A stretch of 21,526 bases of DNA from a virus (Duplodnaviria > Heunggongvirae > Uroviricota > Caudoviricetes), in IMG/VR virus record IMGVR_UViG_2778261179_000011; one strand, 5' to 3'. Shown here piece by piece: positions 1 through 18,698 of this stretch; within the stretch, counting starts at the first letter, position 1, and every line of letters begins with the position of its first letter. The translations under genes and the position numbers were made by a program. Below the pieces are notes generated by a model. The model did not search any database. It had not been told where the DNA came from and saw only the letters and a list, made by a program, of their open reading frames with translations.

Positions 1-142
1 TGACAAAGTCATCGGGCATTATCTGAACATAAAACACTATCAATAAGTTGGAGTCATTACCAAACAAAAGAACGAGTTAAAAGTTGAAATTACTGGAGAT
101 AAGAAACATCCTAGTCTAGGGGATAAAATCCGCGCTGCGGCG

Positions 143-457
143 TTGCATCTCGAAATCCCCACACTGATTGAAGACAATATATGTCCTCAATTCTGGGCTA
201 TCAAGAACGATGGGCAATGGTCTGACATCCCAGAAGCTATAGCCAAATATCGTAACGACTTAGTGCACCCCAAAGCGAGGATAAAATCACAGAACCAACA
301 CGCGCTTACTATTGAGATGTGGCGATTATCTGTTTGGTATCTGGAGCTCTTTATGTTGCGCTTGATTGGATATCAGGATGTCTATTCAAACAGGCTAACG
401 GCTAAATGGCTTGGTGAGGTCGAGCATGTCCCATGGGCCGGTAGCAAATCATCCTAG
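143..457 (+). CDS. Hypothetical protein, 104 aa; doubtful gene or 5'-degraded remnant
   Basis: ORF begins with TTG and has no convincing Shine-Dalgarno sequence. The same frame is open upstream to a stop at 44-46 with no ATG/GTG/TTG. No recognisable motif. Confidence 0.25.
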   Translation: MHLEIPTLIEDNICPQFWAIKNDGQWSDIPEAIAKYRNDLVHPKARIKSQNQHALTIEMWRLSVWYLELFMLRLIGYQDVYSNRLTAKWLGEVEHVPWAGSKSS

Positions 458-490
458 CAACTAATTTGCATTCTATTGCTATCGCAAGGG

Positions 491-513
491 AATTTAGCTA
501 GTTTAGCTAAATT
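491..513. promoter_or_regulatory. Perfect 10-bp inverted repeat (AATTTAGCTA-gtt-TAGCTAAATT), candidate operator
   Basis: Read directly from sequence. Lies 30 bp upstream of the ATG at 543 and overlaps an AT-rich -10-like TATAAA at 513-518. Confidence 0.35.
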
Positions 514-542
514 ATAAAAACGAGCCGTAAGCGAACATTCAG

Positions 543-782
543 ATGAACGAGCAAGAAATTTACGCACAAATCAAAAAAGCTCTGCAAGAGGCACCTCGCA
601 ATCAATACACCGCTGAGCTGCATCTGCAAATGATCAAATATGCTGATGAGCTAAAGAACATCACAGCCAAAGAGTTTTGTGAAGGGGTGGGCCTGCGGAG
701 CAGCTTTGGCACCGAATTTAGCAAAATGCGCAATCTGACTCAGCGCTTGAAAGCTGCCGGGCTCGATACAGCCAAGCTATAA
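543..782 (+). CDS. Small hypothetical protein, 79 aa; possible regulator
   Basis: ATG start, preceded by the inverted repeat at 491-513 and followed 52 bp later by hsdM. No family recognised from sequence. Confidence 0.4.
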   Translation: MNEQEIYAQIKKALQEAPRNQYTAELHLQMIKYADELKNITAKEFCEGVGLRSSFGTEFSKMRNLTQRLKAAGLDTAKL

Positions 783-834
783 CGACTCAAATTTAATCGT
801 GCCGGGCCAATGCTCGGTAATGTAAGGAACAACC

Positions 835-3255
835 ATGGCCATTAAGAAAACCGAACTTTACTCCTCCCTTTGGGCCAGCTGCGATGAGCTGCGTGGCGGT
901 ATGGATGCCAGCCAGTACAAAGACTATGTGCTGACCATGCTGTTTATGAAGTATGTCTCCGATAAGTACAAAGGCGACCCTTACGGCATGATTGTGGTGC
1001 CGCCAGGTGCCAGCTTTGACGATATGGTTGCCTTGAAAGGCGACAAAGAAATCGGCGATAAAATCAATAAAATCATCAGCGCGCTGGCCGAAGAAAACGA
1101 CCTCAAAGGTGTCATCGACGTTGCCGACTTTAACGATGAAGACAAGCTCGGCAAAGGCAAAGAGATGATCGACCGTCTGTCTAAGCTGATCGGTATCTTT
1201 GAAGGGCTAGACCTATCTGCCAACCGCGCCGATGGCGATGACCTACTGGGTGATGCTTACGAATACCTAATGCGCCACTTTGCTACTGAATCGGGTAAAT
1301 CTAAAGGGCAGTTTTATACCCCAGCCGAAGTCTCGCGGATTATGGCGAAAATCATTGGTATTAATGCGCAAACACCACAAGACGCTACGGTCTACGACCC
1401 CACCTGTGGCTCTGGCTCGCTATTGTTAAAAGCCAGTGATGAAGCGCCGCGCGGCTTGTCGATTTTTGGCCAAGAAATGGATAACGCCACCAGTGCCTTG
1501 GCGCGTATGAACATGATCCTGCACAACAACGCCACCGCCAAAATCTGGAAAGGCAACACCATTGCTGACCCGCAATGGAAAGAGGCAAACGGCCAACTTA
1601 AGACTTTTGATTTCGCCGTGGCCAACCCGCCGTTTTCCAACAAAAACTGGACCAGCGGCATTAACCCGAACGACGACGAATTTGGCCGTTTCAGTTGGGG
1701 CATTCCACCCGAGAAAAACGGCGACTACACCTTTTTACTGCACATCATTAAAAGCCTAAAAAGCACCGGTAAAGGCGCGGTCATTCTGCCTCACGGCGTT
1801 TTGTTCCGTGGCAACGCCGAAGCGCGCATTCGTGAAAACCTGATTAAACAAGGCTACATCAAAGGCATTATCGGTTTGCCGGCCAACCTGTTTTATGGCA
1901 CCGGCATTCCTGCCTGTATTATCGTGATTGATAAAGAGCACGCGAACGCTCGCAGCGGCATCTTTATGGTCGATGCCAGCAAAGGCTTTGCCAAAGACGG
2001 CAATAAAAACCGCCTGCGCAGCCAAGATATTCATAAAATCGTTGATGTCTTTACCAAGCAGCTAGAACTGCCGCGCTACTCGCGTATGGTGCCACTCAGT
2101 GAAATCGCCGGTAACGACTACAACCTCAATATTCCGCGTTATATCGACTCCAGCGAACCGGAAGACCTGCACGATTTAAGCGCCCATCTGCAAGGCGGCA
2201 TTCCAAACCGCGATATTGATGCTTTAGAGCGTTACTGGCAGGTGTTCCCGAGTATTCGCGCCTCCTTGTTTGAGCCTGCCCGTGAAGGTTACAGCAAAGC
2301 CTTGGTCAAAGCCTCCGAGGTGAAAAGCACCATCCTGAACCATGACGAGTTCAAAACCTTCGCCGCACAAAGCTTAATACCCTTTACAGAATGGGCGCAG
2401 CGTTCAAACCTCCACGCCATAGCGCAAGATGAACCGCCAAAACAGATTATTCATCGTATCAGCGAAGACCTGTTACAAAGCTATGCGCAAACGCCACTGC
2501 TGAGTAAATACGATATTTACCAGATCCTGATGGATTACTGGGCGGAGTCAATGCAAGACGATGTGTACGTGCTAGTGCAAGACGGCTGGCCAGCAGGCAA
2601 AGTGCTGCGTGAGTTAGTCGTCAAAAAAGGCGAAAAACTGAAAGAATCGCCCGATTTAGTGATTGGCAAAGCCAAATACAAAGCCGAACTCATTCCTCCG
2701 GCGTTGATCGTCGCGCGCTTTTTTGCCGCCGAACAAGTCAAAGTCGATACGCTGCAATCGCTATTGGATAGCGCCAGCCAAGAGCTTGAAACCTACCTTG
2801 AAGAAAACTCGGGTGAAGACGGTTTACTAAACGATGCGCTGAACGACAAAGACAAAGTCACCAAAGCCACAGTCACGGCACGTTTAAAACTCGCCACCGA
2901 CTCAGATGAAAAAGCCGCGCTAAAACAAGCCAAAAAGCTGTTTGATGCTGAGGGTGATGCCAAAAAAGCCCTAAAAGACGCGCAAGACGCGCTCGATTTA
3001 GCGGTGTTTAAGCAATACCCCCAACTCAGCATCGATGAGATCAAATCCATGATTGTGGACGATAAATGGCTGGCAACACTTGAACGTAATATCGTTGCTG
3101 AAATCGAGCGCGTTACCCAGCAACTGGCCAATCGTGTCAAGGAGCTGGAAGAGCGTTATAGCGAGCCACTGCCTGCTCTTACCCAATCAGTAGAAAACTT
3201 GAGCGATAAAGTCGCAGGTCACTTAAAAGCTATGGGCTTGGAGTGGACGGTATGA
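835..3255 (+). CDS. hsdM: Type I restriction-modification system, N6-adenine DNA methyltransferase subunit HsdM (806 aa, long C-terminal extension)
   Basis: Strong RBS (AAGGAA) before the ATG. Motif I DPTCGSGSLL (about 1396-1425), catalytic motif IV NPPF (1624-1635), GQFYTPAEV motif. Extra C-terminal ~280 aa is K/E/A-rich and coiled-coil-like. Confidence 0.9.
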   Translation: MAIKKTELYSSLWASCDELRGGMDASQYKDYVLTMLFMKYVSDKYKGDPYGMIVVPPGASFDDMVALKGDKEIGDKINKIISALAEENDLKGVIDVADFNDEDKLGKGKEMIDRLSKLIGIFEGLDLSANRADGDDLLGDAYEYLMRHFATESGKSKGQFYTPAEVSRIMAKIIGINAQTPQDATVYDPTCGSGSLLLKASDEAPRGLSIFGQEMDNATSALARMNMILHNNATAKIWKGNTIADPQWKEANGQLKTFDFAVANPPFSNKNWTSGINPNDDEFGRFSWGIPPEKNGDYTFLLHIIKSLKSTGKGAVILPHGVLFRGNAEARIRENLIKQGYIKGIIGLPANLFYGTGIPACIIVIDKEHANARSGIFMVDASKGFAKDGNKNRLRSQDIHKIVDVFTKQLELPRYSRMVPLSEIAGNDYNLNIPRYIDSSEPEDLHDLSAHLQGGIPNRDIDALERYWQVFPSIRASLFEPAREGYSKALVKASEVKSTILNHDEFKTFAAQSLIPFTEWAQRSNLHAIAQDEPPKQIIHRISEDLLQSYAQTPLLSKYDIYQILMDYWAESMQDDVYVLVQDGWPAGKVLRELVVKKGEKLKESPDLVIGKAKYKAELIPPALIVARFFAAEQVKVDTLQSLLDSASQELETYLEENSGEDGLLNDALNDKDKVTKATVTARLKLATDSDEKAALKQAKKLFDAEGDAKKALKDAQDALDLAVFKQYPQLSIDEIKSMIVDDKWLATLERNIVAEIERVTQQLANRVKELEERYSEPLPALTQSVENLSDKVAGHLKAMGLEWTV

Positions 3256-4643
3256 CAAATTTTTCGGGAAAACCTCTTTCTCCAAAAACAGGGAACGCCG
3301 CTTGCGGCAGCCCGCAGGGCGGAGGCAGGGATAGCCGACGTAATGGAGTGGCGGAAGTGAGTTCGACATATCTAGCGGAAATGGCTTCGCCCACAGTTCC
3401 CGTTGGATTTAAGCCAACAGAAGTTGGGGTGATTCCTGAAAATTGGGAAGTAATTCAACTTGGTGATTGCACATCTTATGTTGGATCGGGGAAAACTAAT
3501 ACGAAATCCAGAGGTGAATACCCCCTATATGGCTCGACTGGCTTAATTGGAAGTTGCGAAAGACCTGAATACTCTGGTGAAGCGTTGCTAGTTGCGCGTG
3601 TTGGTGCAAATGCTGGAAGGTTGAATTATGTTTGTGGTGAATATGGTGTTTCGGATAACACAATATTAGTTAAAACTAAGCCAGAACATAGCATTGATTA
3701 CTTAAAATATTGGTTGATACGAAAAAATCTAAACACTCTAGTTTTTGGGTCAGGTCAGCCGCTCATAACAGGAACACAACTTAAAGAATTGGCTCTGCCT
3801 CTCCCATCGAAGACAGAACAAGCCGCCATTGCCAATGCCCTATCCGATGTCGATGCGCTGATCGGCGAGCAGGAAAAACTGATCGCCAAAAAACAGGCCA
3901 TCAAAACCGCCACCATGCAACAACTCCTCACCGGCCGCACCCGCCTGCCGCAGTTCGCCCTGCGTGAAGATGGCACGCCCAAAGGCACCAAGCCAAGTGA
4001 ATTGGGCGAAATACCTGAGGATTGGGAGGTTGTGGAGTTTGGCTGCACATTGAAGGAATTTCGAAATGGGTATGCTTTCTCGGCAAATGGATACTCCTCT
4101 ACTGGAACACCAATCATTACTATGGCTCAAATTGGACTTTCAGGCTCATTTCAGTTTGATATCTCCAAGGTGAATAAATGGGATTCGGAACAACAGGATT
4201 CGCTTAAGGAGTTTTGGGTTCGAGACGGTGATCTCCTAATAGCGATGACTGATGTGACTCCAGATAAAAATCTTATCGGTCAAATGACAATCGCTAAGTT
4301 AGGTGGTATAGCACTTCTAAACCAACGCGTTGGCTTGCTTCGGCTTAAAAATGAAATTGCTTATACGGGATACTTTAGTTTTCTGAGCTGTTTGCCTGTT
4401 TGGAAAACATATTGTAAGGGTGTTGCTTCGTTAGGGGTGCAGGCAAATATCGGTACGTCAGATATCAGAAAAGCAAAGGTGCCGCTCCCATCCATAAAAG
4501 AACAAACCGCCATTGCCTCTATCCTCTCCAATATGGACGCAGAGATTCAGGCGCTGGAACAACGCCTTGGCAAAACCCGCCAAATCAAACAAGGCATGAT
4601 GCAAGAACTGCTCACGGGTAAAACACGGCTGCCAATCACGTAA
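3252..4643 (+). CDS. hsdS: Type I restriction-modification specificity subunit HsdS (two target-recognition domains)
   Basis: ATG at 3252 overlaps the hsdM stop (ATGA). Two TRD starts (VIPENWEVIQLGD; EIPEDWEVVEFG) and two conserved repeats ending LLTG(R/K)TRLP. Start is uncertain: the first ~42 codons are low-complexity and GC-rich, and ATG at 3378 (MASPTVPVGF...) is an alternative. Confidence 0.85.
   Translation: MTNFSGKPLSPKTGNAACGSPQGGGRDSRRNGVAEVSSTYLAEMASPTVPVGFKPTEVGVIPENWEVIQLGDCTSYVGSGKTNTKSRGEYPLYGSTGLIGSCERPEYSGEALLVARVGANAGRLNYVCGEYGVSDNTILVKTKPEHSIDYLKYWLIRKNLNTLVFGSGQPLITGTQLKELALPLPSKTEQAAIANALSDVDALIGEQEKLIAKKQAIKTATMQQLLTGRTRLPQFALREDGTPKGTKPSELGEIPEDWEVVEFGCTLKEFRNGYAFSANGYSSTGTPIITMAQIGLSGSFQFDISKVNKWDSEQQDSLKEFWVRDGDLLIAMTDVTPDKNLIGQMTIAKLGGIALLNQRVGLLRLKNEIAYTGYFSFLSCLPVWKTYCKGVASLGVQANIGTSDIRKAKVPLPSIKEQTAIASILSNMDAEIQALEQRLGKTRQIKQGMMQELLTGKTRLPIT
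3809..3950 (+). repeat. HsdS central conserved repeat (direct repeat copy 1)
   Basis: Encodes TEQAAIANALSDVDALIGEQEKLIAKKQAIKTATMQQLLTGRTRLP; clearly related at the protein and DNA level to copy 2 at about 4494-4634. Confidence 0.7.
4494..4634 (+). repeat. HsdS C-terminal conserved repeat (direct repeat copy 2)
   Basis: Encodes KEQTAIASILSNMDAEIQALEQRLGKTRQIKQGMMQELLTGKTRLP; direct repeat of the 3809-3950 segment, flanking TRD2. Confidence 0.7.
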
Positions 4644-4653
4644 GGACACGAAT

Positions 4654-6072
4654 ATGTCACCAGACACCTCCACACATAGGCTGCATGAGCAAGTTAAATC
4701 GGTTTATCAGCTCCTGAGCGAGCCACAGCTGCATATTCCTAACTACCAGCGCCCATACAAATGGACAGCAGACAACCTCCAAGCGCTACTCACCGATTTA
4801 CGCAACTACCGCGATAAATCGGCGTATCGCTTGGGTACGGTGGTGTTTCATCACAACTCAGAGCATTTGGATATTGTTGATGGCCAACAACGCACCCTAA
4901 CCTTAATGCTACTGGTTAAAGCCATTGCTGAACACATGCAGGAGCATAAAGACTTAATCCAGCGCAAAGACTTAAGCGAGCAAATAGCCGAACTGGTTAC
5001 CAATATTGATGCTTTTTTAAGCACACAACCCGACAGCCCCCACAGCGGCATCACCCATACCAACCTTTATCAAAACTACCAAGCGGCTAAGCGGGCAGTG
5101 GCACAGCCTGAGTTTGGCGAAGCAGATATTGCGTTTTTACTGCATAAATGCCAAGTCGTCACCTTTGTGTTGAATGATATTTCTGAGGCGTTTCAGTTTT
5201 TTGACTCACAAAACAGCCGTGGCCGCGACTTAAACCCGCACGACTTACTCAAGGCCTATCATTTACGCGAGTTTCCCGAGCATGAAGCGGCACTCAAAGC
5301 CGAAGCCGTTAAAGACTGGGAAAGCCAAAAAAGCCACGAACTAGCCAGGGTATTTGCCCACTACCTGTATCGCATTCGCCACTGGGTTAATAACCAGCAG
5401 GCCCACTACTTTAGCAAAGACGATATTGGGCTATTTAAGGGCGTGAATCTGTATCAGGCAGCCCATTATCCTTACACCCAAGCGCTGCGCATTCAGCACG
5501 AGCAGGTGGATAACTACAATAATCACTTTCAGCGCAAGCTAGACCAAAACACGCTGGCGTTTCCGTTTCAGCTCGATCAAATCGTAATTAATGGGCGGCG
5601 CTTTTTTGAAATGATTGCGCACTACCAAGCGCTGATTAACAGCCTAACCGGCGAGGCATTAACCAAACAGTCCAGCATTCCTTTATCAGACCGTGCACAG
5701 CAGATTCTTAACGCGCTCAATAGCTATGGGGCACGGCATCGAACGGGCGATCGTTATATCCGCATGCTGTTTGACTGTGCGCTGCTGTATTACTTCGATA
5801 AATTTGGCAAAGAGCAACTATCAGAAGCGATCGAAAAGTTTTTCATCTGGGCCTATAGCTGCCGCTTAACCAGCCACGCTGTGTATATCGAAACCATGGA
5901 TAACCACGCCCGCAACAGCAAACTGTTTAAATTAATCCAGTCCGCCATTAGCCCAAAACAAGTACTGGCGCTGCCTTTAAAAACCCTCACCCCCGCTGAT
6001 CTCAAGGCAAGTAAGATGGGCGATTTGGTTAAGCTATTCGAAGGAATGAAATACTATGTCGAATCCAAATAA
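4654..6072 (+). CDS. DUF262 (ParB/Srx-like nuclease fold) protein, 472 aa, GmrS-like; no recognisable HNH C-terminus
   Basis: RBS AAGGA 8 nt upstream. N-terminal ...IPNYQRPYKW... and DGQQR motif (4879-4893), both hallmarks of DUF262. Starts 10 bp after the hsdS stop. Confidence 0.75.
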   Translation: MSPDTSTHRLHEQVKSVYQLLSEPQLHIPNYQRPYKWTADNLQALLTDLRNYRDKSAYRLGTVVFHHNSEHLDIVDGQQRTLTLMLLVKAIAEHMQEHKDLIQRKDLSEQIAELVTNIDAFLSTQPDSPHSGITHTNLYQNYQAAKRAVAQPEFGEADIAFLLHKCQVVTFVLNDISEAFQFFDSQNSRGRDLNPHDLLKAYHLREFPEHEAALKAEAVKDWESQKSHELARVFAHYLYRIRHWVNNQQAHYFSKDDIGLFKGVNLYQAAHYPYTQALRIQHEQVDNYNNHFQRKLDQNTLAFPFQLDQIVINGRRFFEMIAHYQALINSLTGEALTKQSSIPLSDRAQQILNALNSYGARHRTGDRYIRMLFDCALLYYFDKFGKEQLSEAIEKFFIWAYSCRLTSHAVYIETMDNHARNSKLFKLIQSAISPKQVLALPLKTLTPADLKASKMGDLVKLFEGMKYYVESK

Positions 6073-8086
6073 GATAACGAGCTTTTCCATTAGGCAGCTG
6101 TTAGCAGATCACGCCTCCTATCAGATCCCTATGTATCAGCGTAACTATGCGTGGGAAAAAGGCGAAATTGATCAGCTGATTCAGGATGTTGTTGATTATC
6201 AAGTCCAAAAAAAGCCTTACTACATCGGCAGCTTAGTGGTGTATCCACGGGATAATCAGCTATTTGAAGTGATTGACGGCCAGCAACGCTTTACCACGCT
6301 CACGCTAATTGCTTTATGTTTGAAGCACTTCAGCATGTTGGCTGAAAAAGAAGGGACAACGTCTGTTAATAAAGTTGACATGAGTTGGTATCAAACGCCT
6401 AATTTATGCTTTGAAAGCCGCGCTAACTCAACCCTCACCCTTGAAAAAATAACAGCCTTTAGCGCCTCTACTGCTAAGCATTTGTCACTAGATCCAGCCG
6501 ATATTAATCAGTGCAACAGCGCTATTTTAAATGGCTTTAACTTGGTGCAGCAGGCGTTATCTGAGCTTGCTAAACAGCATGACCTACATCAGTTTTGTGA
6601 GTACTTATTTGATTGGGTAAAAATCACCCGCGTCCCCGTTCCCCACGACACTGATTTAACCCATTACTTTGAGGCGATGAATAATCGCGGGGAACAGCTA
6701 GAAAAACACGAAGTGCTAAAAGCCAGAATGCTCTCTGTGCTGCAAGATGCCAGCCACCAACACCCTGAGAATAAAAGCGCGCAGGAAGTGCTCAATAAAG
6801 TGTGGAATGCCTGCGCCAATATGGAGCGTTATGTGCAGTTTGGCTTTAACCCCATCGAGCGCCAGCAGATCTTTGGCAATGAGTGGCAAAAATTTACCGC
6901 TAACAGCTTTACTGAGCTTCATCACGCGCTAATAGCCCCTGAAAACAGAGCAGCCAACACCACAGTCGACACTCATAGTGATGAGCCAGCCGCCAAATCA
7001 CTGGCTGAAATGTTGAACACACCTTATACCGATAAACAGGCAGAAACAGATAAAAATCAACCATCGCCTGAACGCTTTAACAGCGTGATTAATTTTTCTA
7101 ACTTTTTATTGCAGGTCTTAAGGGTTTACAGCCAAAAAGACATTTCTTTGGACGATAAGCAGTTAATTGATCAGTTCGAAACGCATATTTTGCACGCAGA
7201 CGAGGCAGCAGAAAAAGTTAAAGCGTTTGTGTTTGCCTTATTAAAATCCAAATACCTATTTGATCACTACGTGATAAAACGCGATGCGACGGCTCAGGAC
7301 AAGTGGGGCATCAAGCAATTAAAACGCTATGAGCGCAATAGCCAAAGCTACGTCAATACCTTTGCCCAAAACGATCAGCCTGATACCACTCACTCGCAAT
7401 TAAATCAGCGCATTGTTTTATTACTAAGCGCCTTTCATGTCTCTACGCCCACCATGAACTACAAGCACTGGTTAACCGGCGTTTTGCATATCCTGCATCA
7501 ACTGCACGCCAAGCAACTCGATGCAGACAACTATTTAAAGGCACTCGAAAAGCTCGCCAGAAGCTTTATCTATGGGCGTTATTTGGCTAAAACAGCGGCT
7601 GATTATTACACACTGATTTTTGATAACCCGAAGGACTATCAACCCTTAGCGGACACGTGTTTTTTACGGTGTCGCTTGCGCTATGGTTCGATTAAAAACA
7701 ACTTTGTATTTAACTATTTAGATTATTTGCTGTGGTGCACCACCCAAGATAAGGACCTGGTGTATCGTGAGTTTGAATTTAGTTTTAGAAGCTCGGTCGA
7801 GCATTTCTACCCACAAGATCCCTACTCTGGCGAACCATTAGAGGATGGGCCTTTGCATAGTTTTGGTAACCTATGCCTAATTAGCCACAGCAAAAACTCT
7901 AAGCTCAGCAACTACCAACCCACGGCTAAAAAAGAGCACTTTCAAGCAGCCAGCACCCAAGGCAAAATCGACTCACTCAAGCTGTATGAAATGACTCGGG
8001 TTAAAGTATGGGATGCAGATGCTATCCACAAGCATGAAACCCAAATGCTGGGATTGTTTATTAAGGATTCTGAGGGAGAAAAATGA
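6056..8086 (+). CDS. DUF262 + DUF1524 (His-Me finger/HNH-like) protein, 676 aa; GmrSD-like putative modification-dependent (Type IV-like) restriction endonuclease
   Basis: N-terminal ...IPMYQRNYAW... with DGQQR (6275-6289). C-terminal SVEHFYPQ...GNLCLISHSKNSKLSN (about 7793-7915), typical of the DUF1524 nuclease module. Overlaps the previous gene by 17 bp and hsdR by 4 bp. Confidence 0.75.
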   Translation: MSNPNKITSFSIRQLLADHASYQIPMYQRNYAWEKGEIDQLIQDVVDYQVQKKPYYIGSLVVYPRDNQLFEVIDGQQRFTTLTLIALCLKHFSMLAEKEGTTSVNKVDMSWYQTPNLCFESRANSTLTLEKITAFSASTAKHLSLDPADINQCNSAILNGFNLVQQALSELAKQHDLHQFCEYLFDWVKITRVPVPHDTDLTHYFEAMNNRGEQLEKHEVLKARMLSVLQDASHQHPENKSAQEVLNKVWNACANMERYVQFGFNPIERQQIFGNEWQKFTANSFTELHHALIAPENRAANTTVDTHSDEPAAKSLAEMLNTPYTDKQAETDKNQPSPERFNSVINFSNFLLQVLRVYSQKDISLDDKQLIDQFETHILHADEAAEKVKAFVFALLKSKYLFDHYVIKRDATAQDKWGIKQLKRYERNSQSYVNTFAQNDQPDTTHSQLNQRIVLLLSAFHVSTPTMNYKHWLTGVLHILHQLHAKQLDADNYLKALEKLARSFIYGRYLAKTAADYYTLIFDNPKDYQPLADTCFLRCRLRYGSIKNNFVFNYLDYLLWCTTQDKDLVYREFEFSFRSSVEHFYPQDPYSGEPLEDGPLHSFGNLCLISHSKNSKLSNYQPTAKKEHFQAASTQGKIDSLKLYEMTRVKVWDADAIHKHETQMLGLFIKDSEGEK

Positions 8087-11000
8087 GTAACGTCGGCCAG
8101 CGTGAACGCATGACCCAACAGCGCATTGTTGAGCTGTTTCAAACGGATTTAGGCTACCGCTATTTAGGTAACTGGGAATACCGCGATAACAATAAAAACA
8201 TAGAAGTTGAGCTACTAACGAGCTGGCTGAAAAAGCGCGGCATAAGCGAGGCGCTGATTAATCGCGTGATTCGTCAGCTAGACAGCGCAGCGGCGCTGGG
8301 CGAAGGTAAAAAGCTCTATTACGCCAACAAAGAGGTTTATCGCCTGCTGCGTTACGGCGTGAAAGATAAAGAAGGTGCTGGCCATCTTAATGAAACCGTG
8401 TGGCTGATTGACTGGAAAAATCCAGAAGCAAACGATTTTGCCATTGCCGAAGAAGTCTCTATCAAGGGTGAAAACAAAAAATGCCCAGACATAGTGCTGT
8501 ATGTCAATGGTATCGCTCTAGGTGTGATTGAGCTGAAACGCTCTTCGGTGTCTGTCTCTGAGGGTATTCGCCAGAACCTCGATAACCAAAAGAAAGATTT
8601 TATCCGTAACTTCTTCACCACCATGCAATTGGTGATGGCGGGTAACGACACGCAAGGCTTGCGTTACGGCACGATTGAAACCCCGGAGAAGTATTATCTT
8701 GAATGGAAAGAAGAGATAGAGAACGGGTATAGCCATAAGCTCGACTTTCACCTGAGCCGCGTATGCAATAAAGCGCGTTTTTTACAGATCATCCACGATT
8801 TTATTGTTTTCGATGCGGGTATTAAAAAGACCTGTCGTCACAATCAGTTCTTTGGTATTGAAGCGGCAAAACGCCATATCGCAAGGCGTGAAGGCGGCAT
8901 TATTTGGCATACGCAAGGTTCTGGCAAAAGCCTCACTATGGTGTGGTTGGCCAAATGGATACGTGAAAATGTCAAAGACGCCCGTGTATTGATCGTGACC
9001 GATCGTACCGAGCTGGATGAGCAGATAGAAAAAGTATTCACCGGTGTTGAGGAAGATATTTATCGCACCAAAAGCGGTGCCGATTTGGTGGCGACGCTCA
9101 ATCAGCCCAACCCTTGGTTGGTATGCTCTTTAGTCCATAAATTTGGTCGGCAGTCTGATTCGGAAAACGATACCGCGACGGATGAGTTTATTGCCGAGTT
9201 AAAGAAATCCCTACCATCGGACTTTAAAGCCAAAGGCGACCTATTCGTATTTGTTGATGAATGCCACCGTACTCAATCGGGCAAGTTGCACGAAGCGATG
9301 AAGTCCATTCTGCCAGAAGCCATGTTTGTCGGCTTCACCGGCACCCCCTTGATGAAGAAAGACAAGAAAAAATCGGTTGAGGTATTTGGCCCTTACATTC
9401 ACACCTATAAGTTTGATGAAGCTGTGGCCGATGGCGTTGTGCTCGATTTACGCTACGAAGCACGAGACATCGACCAAAATGTCACGTCGCAGAAAAAGGT
9501 CGATGAATGGTTTGAAGCCAAAACTCGCGGCTTATCTCGATTAGCGAAAACCCAGTTGAAACAGAAATGGGGCACCATGCAAAAGGTGCTGTCCAGTAAA
9601 TCGCGTTTGCAGCAGATTGTGAATGATATCTTGCTGGATATGGACACTAAGCCACGCCTGATGGATGGCTACGGCAATGCCATGTTGGTCTGCTCTAGTG
9701 TCTATCAAGCTTGTAAAGCTTATGAAATGTTCAGCCAAACAGATTTAGCCGGCAAGGTGGCTATTGTCACCAGTTTTCAGCCGACCGCTGCGAGCATTAA
9801 AGGGGAAGAAACCGGTGAAGGCTTAACGGAAAAGCTCTTTAAGTACGATATTTACCGCAAAATGCTTGCGGATTACTTCGAGCAACCGGAAGACAAGGCC
9901 GCTAACCGAGTTGAAGAGTTTGAAAAAGAAGTTAAAAAACAATTTATTGATGAGCCAGGGCAAATGCGCTTGCTCATCGTGGTCGATAAGTTGCTGACTG
10001 GCTTCGACGCCCCTTCGGCTACCTATTTGTATATCGACAAACAGATGGCTGATCACAATCTGTTTCAGGCCATTTGCCGCGTGAACCGCTTGGATGGCGA
10101 TGATAAAGAATACGGTTACATCATTGACTACAAAGATCTGTTCCGCTCGTTGGATAAAGCGATTTCTGATTATACTCAAGGCGCATTTGATGGTTATGAC
10201 AAGGAAGACGTTGCAGGGCTGCTGAAAGATCGTTTAGAGCAAGCCAAGCTCGATTTGGATAATGCGCTGGAAATGGTGCGCGCCTTGTGTGAGCCGGTAA
10301 AAGCGCCACGCAACACGGAAGACTACATTTATTATTTTTGTGGTAAGTCAGGTCTGAACCAAGACGAGCTCACCGAGAAAGAAGCACTGCGTTTAACGCT
10401 TTATCAGAACGTTGCCAAACTGCTGCGTGCGTTCGCCAATATCGCCAATGAAATGCCTGATGCAGGCTATTCTGCGCAAGATGTAGACTCGATAAGAACA
10501 GAAGTGGCTCATTTTGAAAAAGTCCGTGACGAAGTAAAACTGGCCAGTGGCGATTTGGTAGAAATGAAACGCTTTGAGCCTGCGATGCGCCATTTGTTAG
10601 ATATGTATATTCGTGCGGATGACAGCGAAGTACTGATGGATTTTGAAGAGCTGGGGCTTATTGAGCTCATTGTCGAAAAAGGCGCTGATGCCGTGGAGGC
10701 TTTGCCTGATAGTATTCGCAAGAATCAGGAAGCCATGGCCGAAACCATCGAAAATAACGTGCGTAAAACCATCGTTGATGAAAACCCGGTTAACCCCAAG
10801 TATTACGAGCAAATGTCGGTGTTATTGGATGAGCTGATTGAGCTTCGTCGCCAAAAAGCGATTGAATATCAAGAGTATTTGGAAAAAATCCGCGAGCTGT
10901 CTCGTAAGGTTATACGTCCGGAGCAGACAGCGGCTAACTATCCGCCATCGATGGACTCTAATCCAAAACGCGCGTTTTACGATAATTTTGGTCAAGATGA

Positions 11001-11175
11001 ATTGCTGGCTACCAAAATAGATAGTGCCATTCGTTATACCAAAAAAGCGGATTGGGTCGGAGATCGCTTTAAGGAGCGAGAAATTGCCAATGCGGTGCGA
11101 GAAGAAACGACGGGGTATGAGGTGGATATTCAGGGTGTAATGGAATTGGCAAAAGCGCAAAAAGAGTACCATTGA
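8083..11175 (+). CDS. hsdR: Type I restriction enzyme endonuclease/translocase subunit HsdR (1030 aa)
   Basis: N-terminal PD-(D/E)xK nuclease motif (PDIVLYVNGIALGVIELK). SF2 helicase motifs: Walker A HTQGSGKSLT (about 8911-8940), motif II FVDECHR (about 9253-9273), motif III FTGTP. ATGA overlap with the upstream gene. Confidence 0.9.
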   Translation: MSNVGQRERMTQQRIVELFQTDLGYRYLGNWEYRDNNKNIEVELLTSWLKKRGISEALINRVIRQLDSAAALGEGKKLYYANKEVYRLLRYGVKDKEGAGHLNETVWLIDWKNPEANDFAIAEEVSIKGENKKCPDIVLYVNGIALGVIELKRSSVSVSEGIRQNLDNQKKDFIRNFFTTMQLVMAGNDTQGLRYGTIETPEKYYLEWKEEIENGYSHKLDFHLSRVCNKARFLQIIHDFIVFDAGIKKTCRHNQFFGIEAAKRHIARREGGIIWHTQGSGKSLTMVWLAKWIRENVKDARVLIVTDRTELDEQIEKVFTGVEEDIYRTKSGADLVATLNQPNPWLVCSLVHKFGRQSDSENDTATDEFIAELKKSLPSDFKAKGDLFVFVDECHRTQSGKLHEAMKSILPEAMFVGFTGTPLMKKDKKKSVEVFGPYIHTYKFDEAVADGVVLDLRYEARDIDQNVTSQKKVDEWFEAKTRGLSRLAKTQLKQKWGTMQKVLSSKSRLQQIVNDILLDMDTKPRLMDGYGNAMLVCSSVYQACKAYEMFSQTDLAGKVAIVTSFQPTAASIKGEETGEGLTEKLFKYDIYRKMLADYFEQPEDKAANRVEEFEKEVKKQFIDEPGQMRLLIVVDKLLTGFDAPSATYLYIDKQMADHNLFQAICRVNRLDGDDKEYGYIIDYKDLFRSLDKAISDYTQGAFDGYDKEDVAGLLKDRLEQAKLDLDNALEMVRALCEPVKAPRNTEDYIYYFCGKSGLNQDELTEKEALRLTLYQNVAKLLRAFANIANEMPDAGYSAQDVDSIRTEVAHFEKVRDEVKLASGDLVEMKRFEPAMRHLLDMYIRADDSEVLMDFEELGLIELIVEKGADAVEALPDSIRKNQEAMAETIENNVRKTIVDENPVNPKYYEQMSVLLDELIELRRQKAIEYQEYLEKIRELSRKVIRPEQTAANYPPSMDSNPKRAFYDNFGQDELLATKIDSAIRYTKKADWVGDRFKEREIANAVREETTGYEVDIQGVMELAKAQKEYH

Positions 11176-11888
11176 TGCCTAAGGTAGAAATTGGTTCTAT
11201 TGCGATGCAGTTAAATCGTAAGGCAATTAAAAACCTTCATATCAGCGTGTTGCCACCTGATGGGCGTGTGCGTGTTTCTGCTCCTGAATCTATGACAGAA
11301 ACCGCAATCCGTATGGCAGTGATCAGCCGCATTCCTTGGATCAAGAAACAGCAGAGTGTTTTTGCCAAACAACCTCGCCAATCTGATCGAGCAATGGTTA
11401 GCGGTGAATGTCATTACCTGTGGGGCAGGCGTTATCGTCTGAATCTTATCGAGCGTTCCGGAAAGCATGAAATCAAGCTAGGTCGTGGTCGATTGCATTT
11501 ATATGTCAATCCCGCAACAACGCTTGAGAACAAGGCACTGGTACTGAACTCATATTATCGAGATGCACTTAAAACGCGAATCGCTGAGTTATTGCCTGTT
11601 TGGGAAGATAAGATCGGCGTTAAAGCTGTAGATTGGGGAATTAAAAAGATGAAAACCAAGTGGGGCAGCTGCAATATTCAGGCAAAGCGCATTTGGCTAA
11701 ATTTAGAGCTTGCTAAAAAGCCACCGGAGTGTTTGGAGTACATCCTAGTGCATGAATTGGTGCACTTGCTTGAGCGTAATCACAATGAACGCTTCAAGGG
11801 GTATATGGACAAGCTACTTCCCGATTGGCGAGAGCGCAGAGATTTGTTGAATCGGATGCCCTTGGCGCACAACGATTGGGTGTACTAG
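11175..11888 (+). CDS. M48-family / YgjP-like (DUF45) zinc-dependent hydrolase, ~237 aa
   Basis: HExxH zinc-binding motif HELVHLLE (11751-11774) preceded by WGSC. ATG at 11175 overlaps the hsdR stop (TGATG); the track ORF starts 3 nt earlier at TTG 11172. This family is commonly found directly downstream of hsdR. Confidence 0.75.
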   Translation: MPKVEIGSIAMQLNRKAIKNLHISVLPPDGRVRVSAPESMTETAIRMAVISRIPWIKKQQSVFAKQPRQSDRAMVSGECHYLWGRRYRLNLIERSGKHEIKLGRGRLHLYVNPATTLENKALVLNSYYRDALKTRIAELLPVWEDKIGVKAVDWGIKKMKTKWGSCNIQAKRIWLNLELAKKPPECLEYILVHELVHLLERNHNERFKGYMDKLLPDWRERRDLLNRMPLAHNDWVY

Positions 11889-12284
11889 GAAAATTATGCA
11901 GAGTTTGCATGGTTAGCCTGATTATGTATGTGGCGCGTAATTTGAGATAAACTTGATAGTAAAAGCGGGAAATGGATTTCATTTCTCCGATATTTTGCTC
12001 AGGTGCTGTCGCTAAAAGTGTCAAGATTCTATCTTTACGCTTGGCGGCCAATACTCCCGCAGTACCTACCCAGAAAATAGCCAATATTGGGATCAACTTA
12101 ACAGTTTTGGCTTTGTTTATTATAAAAACCAGCACTTTCAATTAGTTGAATGGTTTATTCGCTAGTTTATGTGAACTACCGTTCTAACGAATAGAACACC
12201 CCGAGATATTGCTTTCGCTGGTGGGAAAACATTCCTAACCAACCTGAAGGCGCAATACATCAGTTTTTAAGCAGAGAAAAGACT

Positions 12285-13079
12285 ATGACAGCACAAAATA
12301 CTAAAACAATTCAATACCGCCTGCGTAATGGCCAGAGTGTCGAAGTGACCATCAATAATGATGGTGTACCTGGCGAAAAGGTTTCTATCTCTGATCTGGC
12401 TATCGAAAAAACCATCATGTGCCACCTTGGCTTTACTGAAGAAGTGAGCAAAAAGCATGGTGTAGCTATCTGGCGCACAATGGATACTGGAATGCGCAGA
12501 TTCATTACTGCTCGTACCCCTGGTATGACCATGATGGACCTCATACAGATTGCGCCGCTGTTTGAGTGTGAACCTTTGGATGTATTCAGCAATCCAGCTA
12601 TCTGCCAGCAGTTATATGGTGAGATGAAACTCGCGGTTACCCCCATTGTGCTGCATGAAGGATCGCTTGCTGGCGTATGGAAAGTAGAGCGAATTTCAAG
12701 CTACATGCCATTCCACATCCATGTCAACGGCGTAATCGCAGGTGAAAATCAACCTGTTTCAGTTACAAAGTCAGACCTCAATCGCGCAATTCTTGAAGCA
12801 AGTTGTCGAGTTATCGGCCTGGGCAAACAGTCTTATGTTTCCTTCCCGGCTGGTCCTGAAGGCCCGGCAGAAATTCTGATTATGGATGCCGATCTGCTCT
12901 GGCAAATACAGTTTCTGATTGGCAAAAGCATCATCCGCGCTGAAGAACTCGATCAGTACATTACCTGCACGATGACGGATGAAGTCAAAAGTGTGGCTAT
13001 AGCCAATGCCCGGAAGCTATGTCGTGCTGCATTAACAGAACTGCAAGAAAACACCACGGAAGAAGTGGAAAGCGATTAA
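12285..13079 (+). CDS. Hypothetical protein, 264 aa, function unknown
   Basis: Clean ATG ORF after a ~400-bp AT-rich intergenic region; ends 3 bp before a strong hairpin terminator. No motif recognised. Confidence 0.5.
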   Translation: MTAQNTKTIQYRLRNGQSVEVTINNDGVPGEKVSISDLAIEKTIMCHLGFTEEVSKKHGVAIWRTMDTGMRRFITARTPGMTMMDLIQIAPLFECEPLDVFSNPAICQQLYGEMKLAVTPIVLHEGSLAGVWKVERISSYMPFHIHVNGVIAGENQPVSVTKSDLNRAILEASCRVIGLGKQSYVSFPAGPEGPAEILIMDADLLWQIQFLIGKSIIRAEELDQYITCTMTDEVKSVAIANARKLCRAALTELQENTTEEVESD

Positions 13080-13081
13080 AA

Positions 13082-13105
13082 AAAATCCCGCCGATTGGCG
13101 GGATT
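13082..13105. terminator. Bidirectional rho-independent terminator (10-bp perfect stem AAATCCCGCC / GGCGGGATTT, 4-nt loop)
   Basis: Read directly from sequence. Minus-strand orientation is followed by a U-run of 8 or more (A-run 13076-13084 on plus); plus-strand orientation by TTTCTTC. Sits between convergent genes 12285-13079 (+) and 13109-13426 (-). Confidence 0.65.
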
Positions 13106-13108
13106 TCT

Positions 13109-13426
13109 TCAATATACGATCTGGTCTACATGATCCCCAAAATCATCGTCGTCATCGTCGTCGTCCTCATCGCCACCCTCTACTGCTGGCCAATCAACAA
13201 ACCAGCCAGCGTAAAGATGCAGCGTTCGGAGAACATCACTTGCGGGAGCATCAAGGGTGTTAACGAATCCCATATAGCTATTGGGATTTGCCCCAGCTAT
13301 GGCTTCAGCGATCATGTCCTCGGTAATGTCACCGGAGATAATGCTTAAACGCCCGGAAACTTCTTCATTATCATCAAATTCGATAATGGCATCTCCGCCT
13401 AATGGCGCTGCGATTTTAATCTGCAT
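13109..13426 (-). CDS. Highly acidic small protein, 105 aa, with a D8 tract (DEDDDDDDDDFGD); last gene of the dar-like operon
   Basis: About 26 Asp/Glu against about 3 Lys/Arg. Poly-Asp encoded by a (GAY)n run at 13142-13171. Overlaps the upstream 995-aa gene by 11 bp. Confidence 0.5.
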   Translation of the reverse strand: MQIKIAAPLGGDAIIEFDDNEEVSGRLSIISGDITEDMIAEAIAGANPNSYMGFVNTLDAPASDVLRTLHLYAGWFVDWPAVEGGDEDDDDDDDDFGDHVDQIVY

Positions 13427-16403
13427 TATTTAGCTCCTTTGCCACACCTAATAACAGTTCCAGCAATCCGTCACCATTCATCAGTGATGCGGCAGCGGCC
13501 TCTTTGTCATGATACAACTGAAGAGCCATAGAGAATACTTCCGTTGCTGACGTTTTGGAAATAGTCGGGGATTTCTGCCGAATTTTCCCAGTGTTACTTA
13601 CTGAGGCTGGCGGGTATACCTTCGCCATATAAATATTACTCAATCGAGATCTGAAGCACCATTCAGGCTTGCCACGCCCACCGATATTAACGAAAGATGG
13701 CTTATCCCCTTCAACATTGGCCTTCAGGAATGACCGGGCTTTCTCTAACAAACCAGGGTTACTGTACTCAAGATGATGACCCAGCTCGTGCCACAGTGCA
13801 CTTGCATTTTCATCGTTCAAATTGACAGCAACAACACCATTAAGATTTGCATATGCCCTTCCCTGGTGGTGAACCACCTTTGATAAGGTCGAAATTTTAC
13901 CGCCGGTCAGGCGATAAATATCAGCAAGTTCCTTGCGCAGGTCTATCCCACCATTCTGTCCAGCGCGGGCTTCTTCCACTTCTTCCGTGATAAAAGAGTC
14001 GGCCCACTCAAGAGCTTTTTCTTCAGATACGGATGAGTTGGCGATCGCACTGTTCATGGCAGATAACACTTTCTCGTGGACCGAACCCATACTTCGCTGA
14101 TTCATTTGCCAGCGTGTCTGCGGGTTATATGAGAATCGCTTAAGTAGTTGGTCAAGCTGCTCAAGTTCTTCTTCACTGACATACTTTTTAGCCTCACCAA
14201 TAATGCCAGGGAGAATATTGCCGTTAGGATTAAACGCTCGCGAAAGGAAGAGTTTCAGCGCCCCCATGCCCTCCGATGCTTCAATATCACCAATAACCCG
14301 GTTAACAATGGCCGCACTCTTCGGATTAGCATCCGCCAACGCTCTGGCTACGATTTGCAGGGACGATACGACCTCACGCTGCATATCAGTCCTGATCTCA
14401 TCAATAAACTCTGGCGTTATGCCGTGCTCTTTAAGGATATCCCTGCCTTCCGCCGTTACCCCATCGATATCACCGACATGTTTATTAACCTGACTTTGCA
14501 ATGCCTTAAATGCCTTCAGAATTCCACGGGCATCATCAGCTTTACTAACGGCCTTCCTGAATACTGGCAAGAAGTCAGAGTTAACCTCATTTTGTTGATC
14601 GGCCCACTGAATGGAGGCTTCTTTCATCTCGTCCAGAGTCAGATCACCCAACGCGGTATGGTCTGTGAATATGAGCGACAACCTCTGAACCATTTCTGCC
14701 AATGGTGATGCCGAATGCGCCGCGCTAAGGAATGCTTTCACCCTGGTTGGGCGAATGGAAAACCAGTCAATAGCTGGTGGCATATCTCCGTTTTTTATCG
14801 CCTGCGCTATCTCATCAAAGCCGTCGCGCCCAAGGGAGGATGCGTGATTTAACAATCCGCGAAGTAACGAATTGCTGATACCGAATAATCGGCACCATTT
14901 TTTTACGTCGGCAACAGGCATTCGGACAAAATGCGCAAGCACTTGTACAAGCTGCTCATCCTGGGGATCGGTGCGGGATAGCAGCCTGATCAGATGAATA
15001 ATGTCTTTGATTCCGGATGCCCGATGTAATAGCAAGCTGGTATATGGAGCAACACCGTTGTAACTACCGCCGGAAGCTGACTCGAAAAGACCGCCGGATA
15101 TCCCTTGCATACCTTCGTTTTCCAGTTCCTGAGATACCTGGCGAAGGATATCCTGTAACGACACATCACCGCCGCCAAACATATCCCCGAGCGCCTGGCC
15201 CTGGTGCTGTAACTCATCATTGATACGTTGTGCCATCAACTTAAAGGCGGTGGCCATACGCTTCGCGCTACGGTTATTCGCGACGATAAACAACGCGAGT
15301 GCTTTCACTTCCGGGGCCGTTTCGCTGAACATATCCCCCTGAGCAATAACATCGGTAATATGTTGGCCTGACTCCTTCGATTGCCTTACCAGGTCTACCG
15401 CATCTTTCAATGCAGCCAGCGCCTTTTTATCGAGGCTATCCGCTGTTTCAATGCTATCAACGATAGTTGTCACAGCCTGCTTGTGCGCTTCTCCTGATAA
15501 AGCCTGCATCTGGACAAAATCATTGGCCGCCGCATTAAGCGCCGTCAGAACATTACGCATATCCGGATCAGGTTCTTCTGCAACCATCCTTACCAAGCGC
15601 GCATCCTTATATGCCTTGGCAAAGATCGCGTTTTGTATCCGGTCAACAAGTTGCCGTGTTGGTCGCCCATCTTCAGTTACAAGTCCAGCCGCCTGTGTGG
15701 CACCAACTTGCGTCATAAATCCGCGAATAAACGCGTCATTACTGCGGCTAAGCAGATCTCCGCTTTCTGACGGGTTAAAAAGCGCCATCATCGCCGGTGT
15801 TATGCTGTCGGCATCAACAAAAGCCTTTTCACTGGCTGCCATTTCCTGAAGATCAGAAATATTTGAGTCTTTGGCAAACTGAACGCGGTCAACCTTAGTT
15901 AACCGGCGGCGCACCAGTACCGGAGCCGTCATTGATTCAACCTTTTCAGGACGTATGCCGAATTCGCTCGCATGTTCAATCAGGTACTCCCGATACCGAT
16001 CCGCATTGCCGTCCTGATAGGCTTTAATGATCCCCATGGTTCGTCCATTACCTGACTCAACGGCATTGTCCTCACCAATTATCGGCGCTCCATGGCTGGA
16101 TAAACCGGAGTCGGTAAGCTGAGCAGGCCGCAAATCCTTGGATATCTGGTTAACCTGAAGAATACTGGATGCGCGGGTCCGGTCGCGCGGCTGAAGTTCC
16201 TGGGGATAGTCCGGATTAATTTTCCCGTCCAGAGTATTGGATACCAAAAGAGCTGAGGCATCGACGATATCAAACGCTGTTTTTACCTCGTCTCCCTTCG
16301 CTGTCACCACATACGAAACCCGCCCATAATCGGGCAGGTTCTTTAGCAGCTCGATCAGCGTTTCTATGCTGGTGGCCATTACCACCTGATCGCTTAAGCT
16401 CAT
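13416..16403 (-). CDS. ddrB: DdrB-like large protein, 995 aa, with an HExxH zincin motif near the C-terminus
   Basis: ATG start. HELGHH encoded at 13773-13790 (verified by reverse-complementing the DNA). Size and position after the ddrA-like and darA-like genes match the P1 darA operon as I recall it. Confidence 0.6.
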   Translation of the reverse strand: MSLSDQVVMATSIETLIELLKNLPDYGRVSYVVTAKGDEVKTAFDIVDASALLVSNTLDGKINPDYPQELQPRDRTRASSILQVNQISKDLRPAQLTDSGLSSHGAPIIGEDNAVESGNGRTMGIIKAYQDGNADRYREYLIEHASEFGIRPEKVESMTAPVLVRRRLTKVDRVQFAKDSNISDLQEMAASEKAFVDADSITPAMMALFNPSESGDLLSRSNDAFIRGFMTQVGATQAAGLVTEDGRPTRQLVDRIQNAIFAKAYKDARLVRMVAEEPDPDMRNVLTALNAAANDFVQMQALSGEAHKQAVTTIVDSIETADSLDKKALAALKDAVDLVRQSKESGQHITDVIAQGDMFSETAPEVKALALFIVANNRSAKRMATAFKLMAQRINDELQHQGQALGDMFGGGDVSLQDILRQVSQELENEGMQGISGGLFESASGGSYNGVAPYTSLLLHRASGIKDIIHLIRLLSRTDPQDEQLVQVLAHFVRMPVADVKKWCRLFGISNSLLRGLLNHASSLGRDGFDEIAQAIKNGDMPPAIDWFSIRPTRVKAFLSAAHSASPLAEMVQRLSLIFTDHTALGDLTLDEMKEASIQWADQQNEVNSDFLPVFRKAVSKADDARGILKAFKALQSQVNKHVGDIDGVTAEGRDILKEHGITPEFIDEIRTDMQREVVSSLQIVARALADANPKSAAIVNRVIGDIEASEGMGALKLFLSRAFNPNGNILPGIIGEAKKYVSEEELEQLDQLLKRFSYNPQTRWQMNQRSMGSVHEKVLSAMNSAIANSSVSEEKALEWADSFITEEVEEARAGQNGGIDLRKELADIYRLTGGKISTLSKVVHHQGRAYANLNGVVAVNLNDENASALWHELGHHLEYSNPGLLEKARSFLKANVEGDKPSFVNIGGRGKPEWCFRSRLSNIYMAKVYPPASVSNTGKIRQKSPTISKTSATEVFSMALQLYHDKEAAAASLMNGDGLLELLLGVAKELNNAD

Positions 16404-16415
16404 CCCTGTTACGCC

Positions 16416-16781
16416 TTATGCTGCCTCTTTAATGTTGGCGGCTATCCATGCCGCCGTGTGCTGTTTAACCTGGTCCAGGTCGATGTATGTGCCAACATAT
16501 TGACTCAAGTCCTGCAAGGTACCGATAAATGCATCTGTGCTCTGATCGACGAATTTATCAGCCAGGAAATCAGCAACCAGTTTTGGCACACCATCATGTT
16601 CCGAAGGTTGTTTTTCATCGCCACTACCACCGCCGGACGCGCCGTACCCCATCTGTTGCATGATCTGGTCAATTTCATCGCTGATATCCAGCAACTCCAT
16701 GCCACTCGCGGTGGCCGCTTTGGACATCAGAGCATCCAACTTATCGCTGAGATCCATTAACTCAATAGCTGATAGTGTCAT
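16416..16781 (-). CDS. ddrA: DdrA-like small acidic protein, 121 aa
   Basis: ATG overlaps the stop of the upstream 639-aa gene (ATGA). Called by size and operon position only. Confidence 0.5.
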   Translation of the reverse strand: MTLSAIELMDLSDKLDALMSKAATASGMELLDISDEIDQIMQQMGYGASGGGSGDEKQPSEHDGVPKLVADFLADKFVDQSTDAFIGTLQDLSQYVGTYIDLDQVKQHTAAWIAANIKEAA

Positions 16782-18697: not shown

Positions 18698-18698
18698 G

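Follow-up and report, generated by a model that had tools for sequence, protein, structure and literature searches.

The window analysed here is a single stretch of 21,526 nucleotides, the IMG/VR virus record IMGVR_UViG_2778261179_000011 (Caudoviricetes), in which two adjacent genes, hereafter A and B, lie inside a Type I restriction–modification (R-M) operon. Open reading frame (ORF) calls and Pfam matches place A (472 aa, ATG start) at 4654–6072 and B (676 aa, ATG start) at 6056–8086, both on the + strand, and thus confirm the two DUF262 genes that an earlier note, made from the letters alone, had located between hsdS and hsdR. The junctions described in that note can be read directly from the sequence. 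The hsdS stop codon TAA (4641–4643) is separated by a 10-bp gap from the ATG of A at 4654, which has the Shine-Dalgarno sequence AAGGA ahead of it. The ATG of B at 6056 follows GAAGGAA and creates a 17-bp overlap with A, whose TAA occupies 6070–6072, and B is joined to hsdR by ATGA at 8083–8086. In several RefSeq records of identical sequence, B begins only at an internal ATG, which corresponds to window position 6131, whereas other records use 6056. The 6131 start drops 25 N-terminal residues of B that homologues conserve. Since both the homologue alignment and the Shine-Dalgarno sequence fit 6056, we take this position as the start of B.

A and B share an N-terminal domain and differ in what follows it. 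In A, Pfam detects GmrSD_N (PF03235, DUF262, ParB-like NTPase; residues 18–203, E-value 1.7e-30) followed by the all-helical DUF7834 (PF25202; residues 215–450, 2.6e-78). In B, GmrSD_N (residues 12–225, 1.4e-30) is followed by a helical linker and then by GmrSD_C (PF07510, DUF1524; residues 553–665, 9.8e-12), a His-Me finger. The DUF262 and DUF1524 assignments made earlier by eye are thus borne out by profile matches, whose E-values lie well outside what chance would give. Furthermore, PADLOC matches both proteins to GmrSD-like models (HEC-06, SspE, ‘Orf5’), and an NCBIfam search matched neither to any model. The YQR...W and DGQQR motifs are intact in A (YQR31..W37, DGQQR76) and in B (YQR27..W33, DGQQR74), and are accompanied by FDSQN183 in A and FEAMN205 in B. 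The GmrSD architecture with a C-terminal His-Me finger, which the earlier note had ascribed to the second protein, is represented in B by the GmrSD_C match with E582-H583, G604-N605 and N614. Catalytic and nucleoside triphosphate (NTP)-pocket residues are invariant across 28 homologues of each protein, among them E582, H583, N605 and N614 in the 28-homologue alignment of the B family.

A itself contains no DUF1524 or nuclease domain by Pfam or profile–profile comparison, in line with the earlier description. That description was correct as to DUF262 but incomplete, as the C-terminal half of A is occupied by DUF7834. Likewise, the two proteins are ‘paralogous’ only in their DUF262 domains: they are 25% identical by BLASTP, and hhalign pairs only A 14–208 with B 9–231. 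The idea that DUF7834 corresponds by sequence to the linker region of B was considered and found unsupported, since the profiles of the A and B families could be aligned with each other only over DUF262. Strongly conserved patches of DUF7834 include N313-G-R-R-F-F-E-M320, R363/G365/D366 and W399-A-Y401. The domain is found in 564 clusters at 50% identity and, in full-length proteins, is always C-terminal, after ~200 residues. AlphaFold2 models were built from the 28-sequence alignments. For the B model, the best Foldseek matches in the PDB are SspE (3e-9) and DndI (4e-8), with BrxU in eighth place; TM-scores are low (~0.3) because of differing domain orientation and the moderate quality of the model. 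PDB sequence searches with A and B gave matches only in the DUF262 regions of SspE, DndI and one unnamed DUF262 protein, and yielded no solved structure of a two-protein system.

Homologue searches returned thousands of relatives of A and B. The best 120 relatives of each protein have the same architecture at 47–57% identity and include proteins from Vibrio, Pseudoalteromonas, Shewanella, Proteus and Undibacterium. No relatives fall between the E. coli matches, which are 97–100% identical, and those at ~56% (A) or ~52% (B). Genomic context was examined in 80 species-representative loci, chosen as the best-scoring of 388, which biases the sample. In each of the 69 loci with room for it, B comes directly after A. 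hsdS lies upstream and hsdR downstream of the pair in 17 of the 41 loci with full flanks, and 16 of these 17 also have a YgjP-like gene after hsdR. In the other 24 full-flank loci the pair is not embedded, being mostly standalone and in a few cases adjoining Type I genes. The seven-gene module of the window recurs in Gammaproteobacteria, Bacteroidota and Verrucomicrobiota. The identities of A and B co-vary tightly (Spearman 0.94), whereas those of A and HsdR are weakly correlated (0.42).

Two systems of this architecture have been tested experimentally. GmrS1/GmrSD2 of E. coli ECOR17 (GmrSD_ECOR17, clusters CLS_003/CLS_004) was described as a Type IV restriction enzyme that requires two GmrS-like genes (PMC12373910, 2025). 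Neither gene suffices for protection; when both are leakily expressed, T2, T6 and T4 lacking ip2/ip3 are restricted, and the E582A/H583A mutant is inactive (PMC12373910). Only T4 with glucosyl-hydroxymethylcytosine (glucosyl-hmC) is restricted by the pair, which is specifically inhibited by T4 Ip3, a member of a group of highly specific Ip proteins (PMC12373910). In alignments with the ECOR17 sequences, rebuilt from the alignment files of that paper, 52% of the 481 aligned positions are identical between A and GmrS1 and 46% of the 697 between B and GmrSD2, and the catalytic EH occupies 582–583 in B and GmrSD2 alike. This full-length identity, together with the matching E582/H583, places the window pair in the same subfamily as the characterized E. 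coli system. At ~50% sequence identity, cross-inhibition of the window allele by Ip3 is uncertain. The ECOR17-type allele is far commoner, being found in 276 of 5426 complete E. coli genomes, as against 15 of 5426 for the window pair (identical or 98.6% identical copies, on both chromosomes and plasmids). The ECOR17-type allele is also present in hundreds of Klebsiella plasmids, mostly conjugative IncF; in K. pneumoniae plasmid pKP18-2113-1 it lies just downstream of a Type I hsdR–SprT pair.

The second system, TgvAB (VC1767/VC1766), is encoded in Vibrio pathogenicity island 2 (VPI-2) of V. cholerae and was described in 2024 by two laboratories (PMC11411939; Gomez & Waters, PMC11014532). Both Tgv proteins contain DUF262, and DUF1524 is present only in TgvB; defence needs both genes and is lost with DGQQR mutants of either protein or with TgvB H571A or N602A (PMC11411939, PMC11014532). 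Transferred to E. coli on its own, TgvAB protects against T2, T4 and T6, and phages that lose glucosylation of 5-hydroxymethylcytosine (5hmC) escape it (PMC11411939, PMC11014532). The Type I enzyme of VPI-2 methylates the genome and restricts plasmids independently of TgvAB (PMC11411939, PMC11014532). In BLASTP comparisons over residues 1–399, A is colinear with VC1767 (25% identity, E 4e-21) and B with VC1766 (24% identity, E 3e-24); moreover, VC1767 scores 132 bits against DUF7834, for which the cut-off is 27. Two V. cholerae matches from our searches (P0140 and P0199) were considered as candidates for TgvB and ruled out by residue numbering (H571/N602) and by their neighbourhoods. They belong to other, non-VPI-2 loci, one with the pair in a seven-gene Type I frame as in the window and one with the pair standing alone.

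By analogy with these systems, A and B most likely constitute a two-subunit, NTP-dependent, modification-dependent Type IV enzyme of the TgvAB / GmrS1–GmrSD2 class. The modification-dependent function complementing Type I restriction that the earlier note had predicted is indeed one that has been shown for the same architecture in both TgvAB and the ECOR17 pair. The proposal joins what was observed here, namely ORFs, domains, motifs, junctions, homology and context conservation, to properties that come from the homologue literature only, namely the requirement for both genes, for DGQQR and for the His-Me residues, the glucosyl-hmC target and the sufficiency of the pair alone. For the window locus we infer activity, target modification, complex formation and co-transcription. 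The ParB-like DUF262 domain with its DGQQR pocket would bind and hydrolyse NTP in both subunits, and A and B would work as a hetero-complex, as suggested by the obligatory A-then-B order, the 17-bp overlap and the tight A–B co-variation. The His-Me finger of B (E582/H583, N605, N614) would then cut incoming DNA with hypermodified cytosines, and nuclease-less A, through its helical DUF7834, is most likely a required structural, sensing or licensing partner. The target may well be the glucosylated 5hmC DNA of T-even phages, although we hold this view less firmly, given the ~50% divergence of the allele and the variety of targets among GmrSD relatives. Dependence on the Type I enzyme appears unlikely, since homologous pairs work alone and often occur alone. 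The pair would thus act on its own, alongside a Type I enzyme that restricts unmethylated DNA, and the locus would thereby cover both unmodified and hypermodified invaders. As a P1-type genome lacks hmC, carriage of A–B should be harmless to the phage-plasmid and should protect the lysogen against superinfection by T-even phages.

Several points weigh against assigning the window pair to this class and extending the properties of the tested systems to it. Identity to those systems is only 46–52% for the ECOR17 pair and ~25% for TgvAB, so that target and inhibitor sensitivity may differ. VC1767 and VC1766 were compared over residues 1–399 only, from Table S5 of the TgvAB paper. GrwAB, another two-protein system, also hits 7-deazaguanine phages (PMC12409362). 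The AlphaFold2 models are of moderate confidence (pLDDT 73 for A and 76 for B), and residues 178–313 of A are poorly predicted. As for expression, no promoter was found, sigma-70-like sites being fewer than in shuffled controls and none lying at plausible operon starts, and truncation of the left side of the surrounding mobile island by IS1, described below, makes native regulation in the window copy uncertain.

The placement of the genes raises the possibility that A and B are coupled to the Type I enzyme, either as a guard that fires on HsdMSR inhibition in the manner of PrrC or by docking of DUF7834 on Hsd subunits. Tight insertion between hsdS and hsdR with overlapping reading frames, and the recurrence of the same seven-gene module across Gammaproteobacteria, Bacteroidota and Verrucomicrobiota, would fit such coupling, for which PrrC offers a precedent as an embedded guard. 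However, cloned TgvAB and the cloned ECOR17 pair both give protection in the absence of hsd genes, 24 of the 41 full-flank loci have a non-embedded, mostly standalone pair, and the identity of A follows that of HsdR far less closely than that of B (0.42 against 0.94). Moreover, within one frame (HsdR 95–97% identical at the amino acid level) the cargo is swapped for divergent alleles or for an unrelated trio of genes, as detailed below, which fits a passive slot. Coupling is therefore very unlikely. Among the other modifications at which a Type IV enzyme of this kind might be aimed, arabinosyl-hmC, 7-deazaguanine, phosphorothioate and 5-methylcytosine (5mC) were considered. Against such a target stand the specificity of the two tested pairs, TgvAB and that of ECOR17, which both act on glucosylated hmC in spite of a mutual identity of only ~25%, and the absence of dnd and ssp modification genes from the window. 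A different target therefore seems quite unlikely, even though relatives outside E. coli share only ~50% of their residues with A and B and the A–B cassette is the fast-changing part of the operon. GmrSD relatives do vary in this respect (BrxU also cuts 5mC/hmC DNA, phosphorothioate is sensed by SspE, and deazaguanine phages fall within the range of GrwAB), and in structure the closest matches are SspE and DndI, both phosphorothioate sensors. A phosphorothioate-sensing, SspE-like role was itself tried as the principal interpretation and was rejected on the lack of dnd and ssp genes in the window.

The remaining alternative concerns the role of A, which might restrain a toxic B in the manner of an antitoxin or, as a decoy, absorb phage inhibitors such as Ip proteins. 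This is unlikely, given that B-type proteins alone give no defence even when overexpressed, with no toxicity reported for them alone, and that DGQQR mutations in TgvA abolish defence, which argues for a positive contribution of the NTPase pocket of A. The gross toxicity of co-inducing the ECOR17 pair (PMC12373910) could nevertheless be read in terms of a brake, A lacks a nuclease domain, and the TgvAB authors name an anti-inhibitor role as one possibility; yet T2 and T6 lack Ip3 and their restriction still needs both genes. Thus, an NTP-dependent Type IV enzyme in which A is a required partner of B remains our preferred reading.

Comparison of closely related Type I frames reveals how the pair varies within its position. 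At the DNA level, the window and a V. cholerae locus (L003) are 86% identical through the helix-turn-helix (HTH) gene and hsdM up to the hsdM stop, 93% identical in the conserved hsdS segments and 92% identical in hsdR and ygjP from exactly the ATG of hsdR, whereas the A–B region aligns only in patches of 64–71%. The corresponding protein identities are 96% for HsdR and 91% for HsdM, but 54.5% for A and 51% for B. Similarly, the HsdR of E. coli 25-07338 is 95% identical to that of the window, but identity falls to 53% for A and 49% for B; CLS_004 of the 2025 ECOR17 paper includes the A protein of this strain (WP_033802991). E. coli C10 carries the island at the same ssb–yjcB site (described below), with HsdR 97% and HsdM 94% identical to the window, and has at the hsdS–hsdR junction an unrelated trio consisting of a short DUF262 protein, an AAA_15/AAA_21/DUF3696 ATPase and a 325-aa protein. 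Given these sharp identity breaks and the swapped cargo, the hsdS–hsdR junction behaves like a slot whose cargo can be exchanged while the surrounding Type I frame is conserved. The swapping is directly observed and its pattern is a modest new observation. As to mechanism, we tentatively suggest, with slightly less confidence than doubt, that the junction is a recombinational slot that exchanges A–B together with hsdS target-recognition domains, the hsdS 3′ segment and the hsdR 5′ end acting as homology arms; A–B cassettes would then form a Type IV allele series, while the island as a whole would move via the ssb codons. If so, the selective driver could be that allele-like diversification lets the Type IV component escape phage-injected Ip-type inhibitors. 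In six other loci (L040, L034, L045, L044, L038 and L056), an extra 1.3–4.3 kb lies between the B homologue and hsdR, which suggests further embedded genes stacked in the same slot.

The Type I genes around the pair are intact and co-oriented according to Pfam and PADLOC, HsdM having an N6_Mtase domain, HsdS two target-recognition domains and HsdR a nuclease and a superfamily 2 (SF2) motor. hsdM (835–3255, +; 806 aa) matches Pfam N6_Mtase (1.1e-103) and HsdM_N, and PADLOC MTase_I over its full length. hsdS (3243–4643, +; 466 aa) matches Methylase_S in two stretches as well as PADLOC Specificity_I; its ORF begins at GTG 3243, and the RefSeq start is the ATG equivalent to window position 3252. 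hsdR (8083–11175, +; 1030 aa) matches HSDR_N, SWI2_SNF2 and T1R_D3-like, and PADLOC REase_I over its full length. The last gene of the Type I module encodes a YgjP-like/SprT-like metallopeptidase (11172–11888, +; 238 aa; Pfam YgjP-like 8.8e-62), and a terminator-like hairpin, called by consensus scan only, follows it at 11967–11987 (+). Directly upstream of hsdM lies a gene for a 79-aa HTH_73 protein (543–782, +; Pfam 4.4e-32), which also precedes hsdM in V. cholerae, Pseudoalteromonas and Shewanella loci and is a possible regulator of the operon. Further upstream, positions 458–542 contain the repeat TTTAGCTA-G-TTTAGCTAAA beside an AT-rich, −10-like TATAAA. This region may serve as operator or promoter of the small HTH gene, although the consensus scan called no promoter there. 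The same scan found no terminator-like site at the junctions inside the operon. Judging from the junctions and from the absence of terminator-like sites before 11967–11987, HTH–hsdM–hsdS–A–B–hsdR–ygjP are probably co-transcribed.

The operon belongs to a mobile island inserted in a P1-like phage-plasmid. Window positions 12187–21526 are P1 backbone, 96–98% identical to P1 and to many IncY P1-like plasmids, and carry, in order, isaA, an hxr-like gene, ddrB, ddrA, darA, hdf, lydB and lydA, running toward cin. Positions 62–12185 represent the right-hand portion of the island, the match to intact islands beginning at 62. The preceding 61 nt (1–61, −) are 98.4% identical over their length to the end of IS1 in phage P1. 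This IS1 end cuts into the 437-aa gene of the island and truncates its left side, which is why recombinase genes are not contiguous with the operon in the window copy. Intact islands have the order of three tandem tyrosine recombinases, a 158-aa gene, the 437-aa gene, HTH_73, hsdM, hsdS, A, B, hsdR and ygjP. In E. coli chromosomes they are directly preceded by the ssb stop codon, in the arrangement uvrA–ssb–[island]–yjcB (E. coli WEM25), and the same insertion at the ssb stop is seen in P1-like plasmids as lyz–ssb–[island]–isaA (pZ1323CEC0011-3). Comparison of the junctions in the window, the WEM25 chromosome, pZ1323CEC0011-3 and P1 defines the right end of the island, with the core CCGTTCT at 12179–12185; the CCGTT(C/T)T core corresponds to the last codons of ssb and is repeated at the right end. 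Chromosomal and plasmid copies of the island coexist in some strains. An ssb-targeted island that shuttles between the chromosome and P1-like plasmids is a modest new observation.

A megablast search against phage records recovered no copy of the A–B pair. An 18.6-kb contig binned as ‘uncultured Collinsella sp.’ (CALJDJ010000001.1) encodes proteins 100% identical to those of the window operon; most likely, it is an enterobacterial contig mis-binned in that metagenome-assembled genome. About 1.2 kb past the right end of the island lies the P1 Dar antirestriction operon (ddrB, ddrA, darA, hdf; 13416–19310, −). Dar proteins shield P1 DNA from Type I restriction. With both the Dar operon and its own hsd and A–B genes, the phage-plasmid carries an anti-Type I function alongside Type I and putative Type IV systems. 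To judge by its gene content, temperate phage-plasmids can apparently carry a combined Type I and Type IV package directed against unmodified and hypermodified DNA. The A–B pair represents a divergent allele that shares ~50% identity with its nearest characterized counterpart and is carried on a P1-like phage-plasmid and a chromosomal island in few E. coli strains. It therefore offers a natural variant for two questions, the role of the nuclease-less DUF262–DUF7834 partner and the specificity of phage Ip inhibitors.

Among known systems, TgvAB shares with the window the order hsdM–hsdS–[DUF262]–[DUF262+DUF1524]–hsdR, co-oriented and overlapping ORFs (17 bp in the window, 8 bp in tgvAB), the QR, DGQQR, FxxxN and H..N..N motifs and the combined logic of Type I and Type IV defence. 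However, the sequences are distant, the Type I family differs, and the description of the VPI-2 operon includes neither HTH_73 nor YgjP. The setting differs as well, VPI-2 having the genes between Zorya and DdmDE and the window having them in a recombinase island on a P1-like plasmid. The ECOR17 pair has the same two-gene architecture and is likewise an E. coli system, but it is a distinct allele and, in the two loci inspected, adjoins Type I genes or their remnants rather than lying between intact hsdS and hsdR. GrwAB of the V. cholerae WASA lineage, likewise a GmrSD-like Type IV system, consists of two DUF262 proteins and depends on both (PMC12137116; review PMC12409362). However, the nuclease-less partner in GrwAB extends into a long C-terminus comprising several unknown domains, the range of the system is wider and its genes lie outside Type I operons.

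The single-chain GmrSD enzymes (Eco94GmrSD/GmrSD_CT596, BrxU, SspE, HEC-06) share with B the layout of DUF262, helical linker and DUF1524, and some of them are likewise embedded in other defence systems, BrxU in BREX and HEC-05/06 in Hma. These enzymes consist of one polypeptide and form homodimers, whereas in the window type a nuclease-less DUF262 protein is always encoded upstream and is essential in the tested homologues. PrrC of EcoprrI (Type IC) is also encoded between hsdS and hsdR and adds a second anti-T4 line; it is, however, an anticodon nuclease that the Type I enzyme keeps latent until that enzyme is inhibited, and A and B show no homology to PrrC, no sign of such coupling and no anticodon-nuclease or other latent-toxin domain in Pfam and PADLOC searches. 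The earlier note regarded the two-protein arrangement as the least characterized part of the locus, a view overtaken by the literature, in which such pairs have been published, named and mutagenized. A 2025 review treats TgvAB and GrwAB as unusual two-protein GmrSD-like systems of unresolved mechanism (PMC12409362). The embedding was recognized too, GmrSD-like proteins often being found within Hma and Type I R-M systems (Payne et al., preprint, 2024). The kind of system is thus already known from TgvAB (2024), GmrS1/GmrSD2 (2025) and the Type I embedding (2024), and the window locus is a new divergent member of it.

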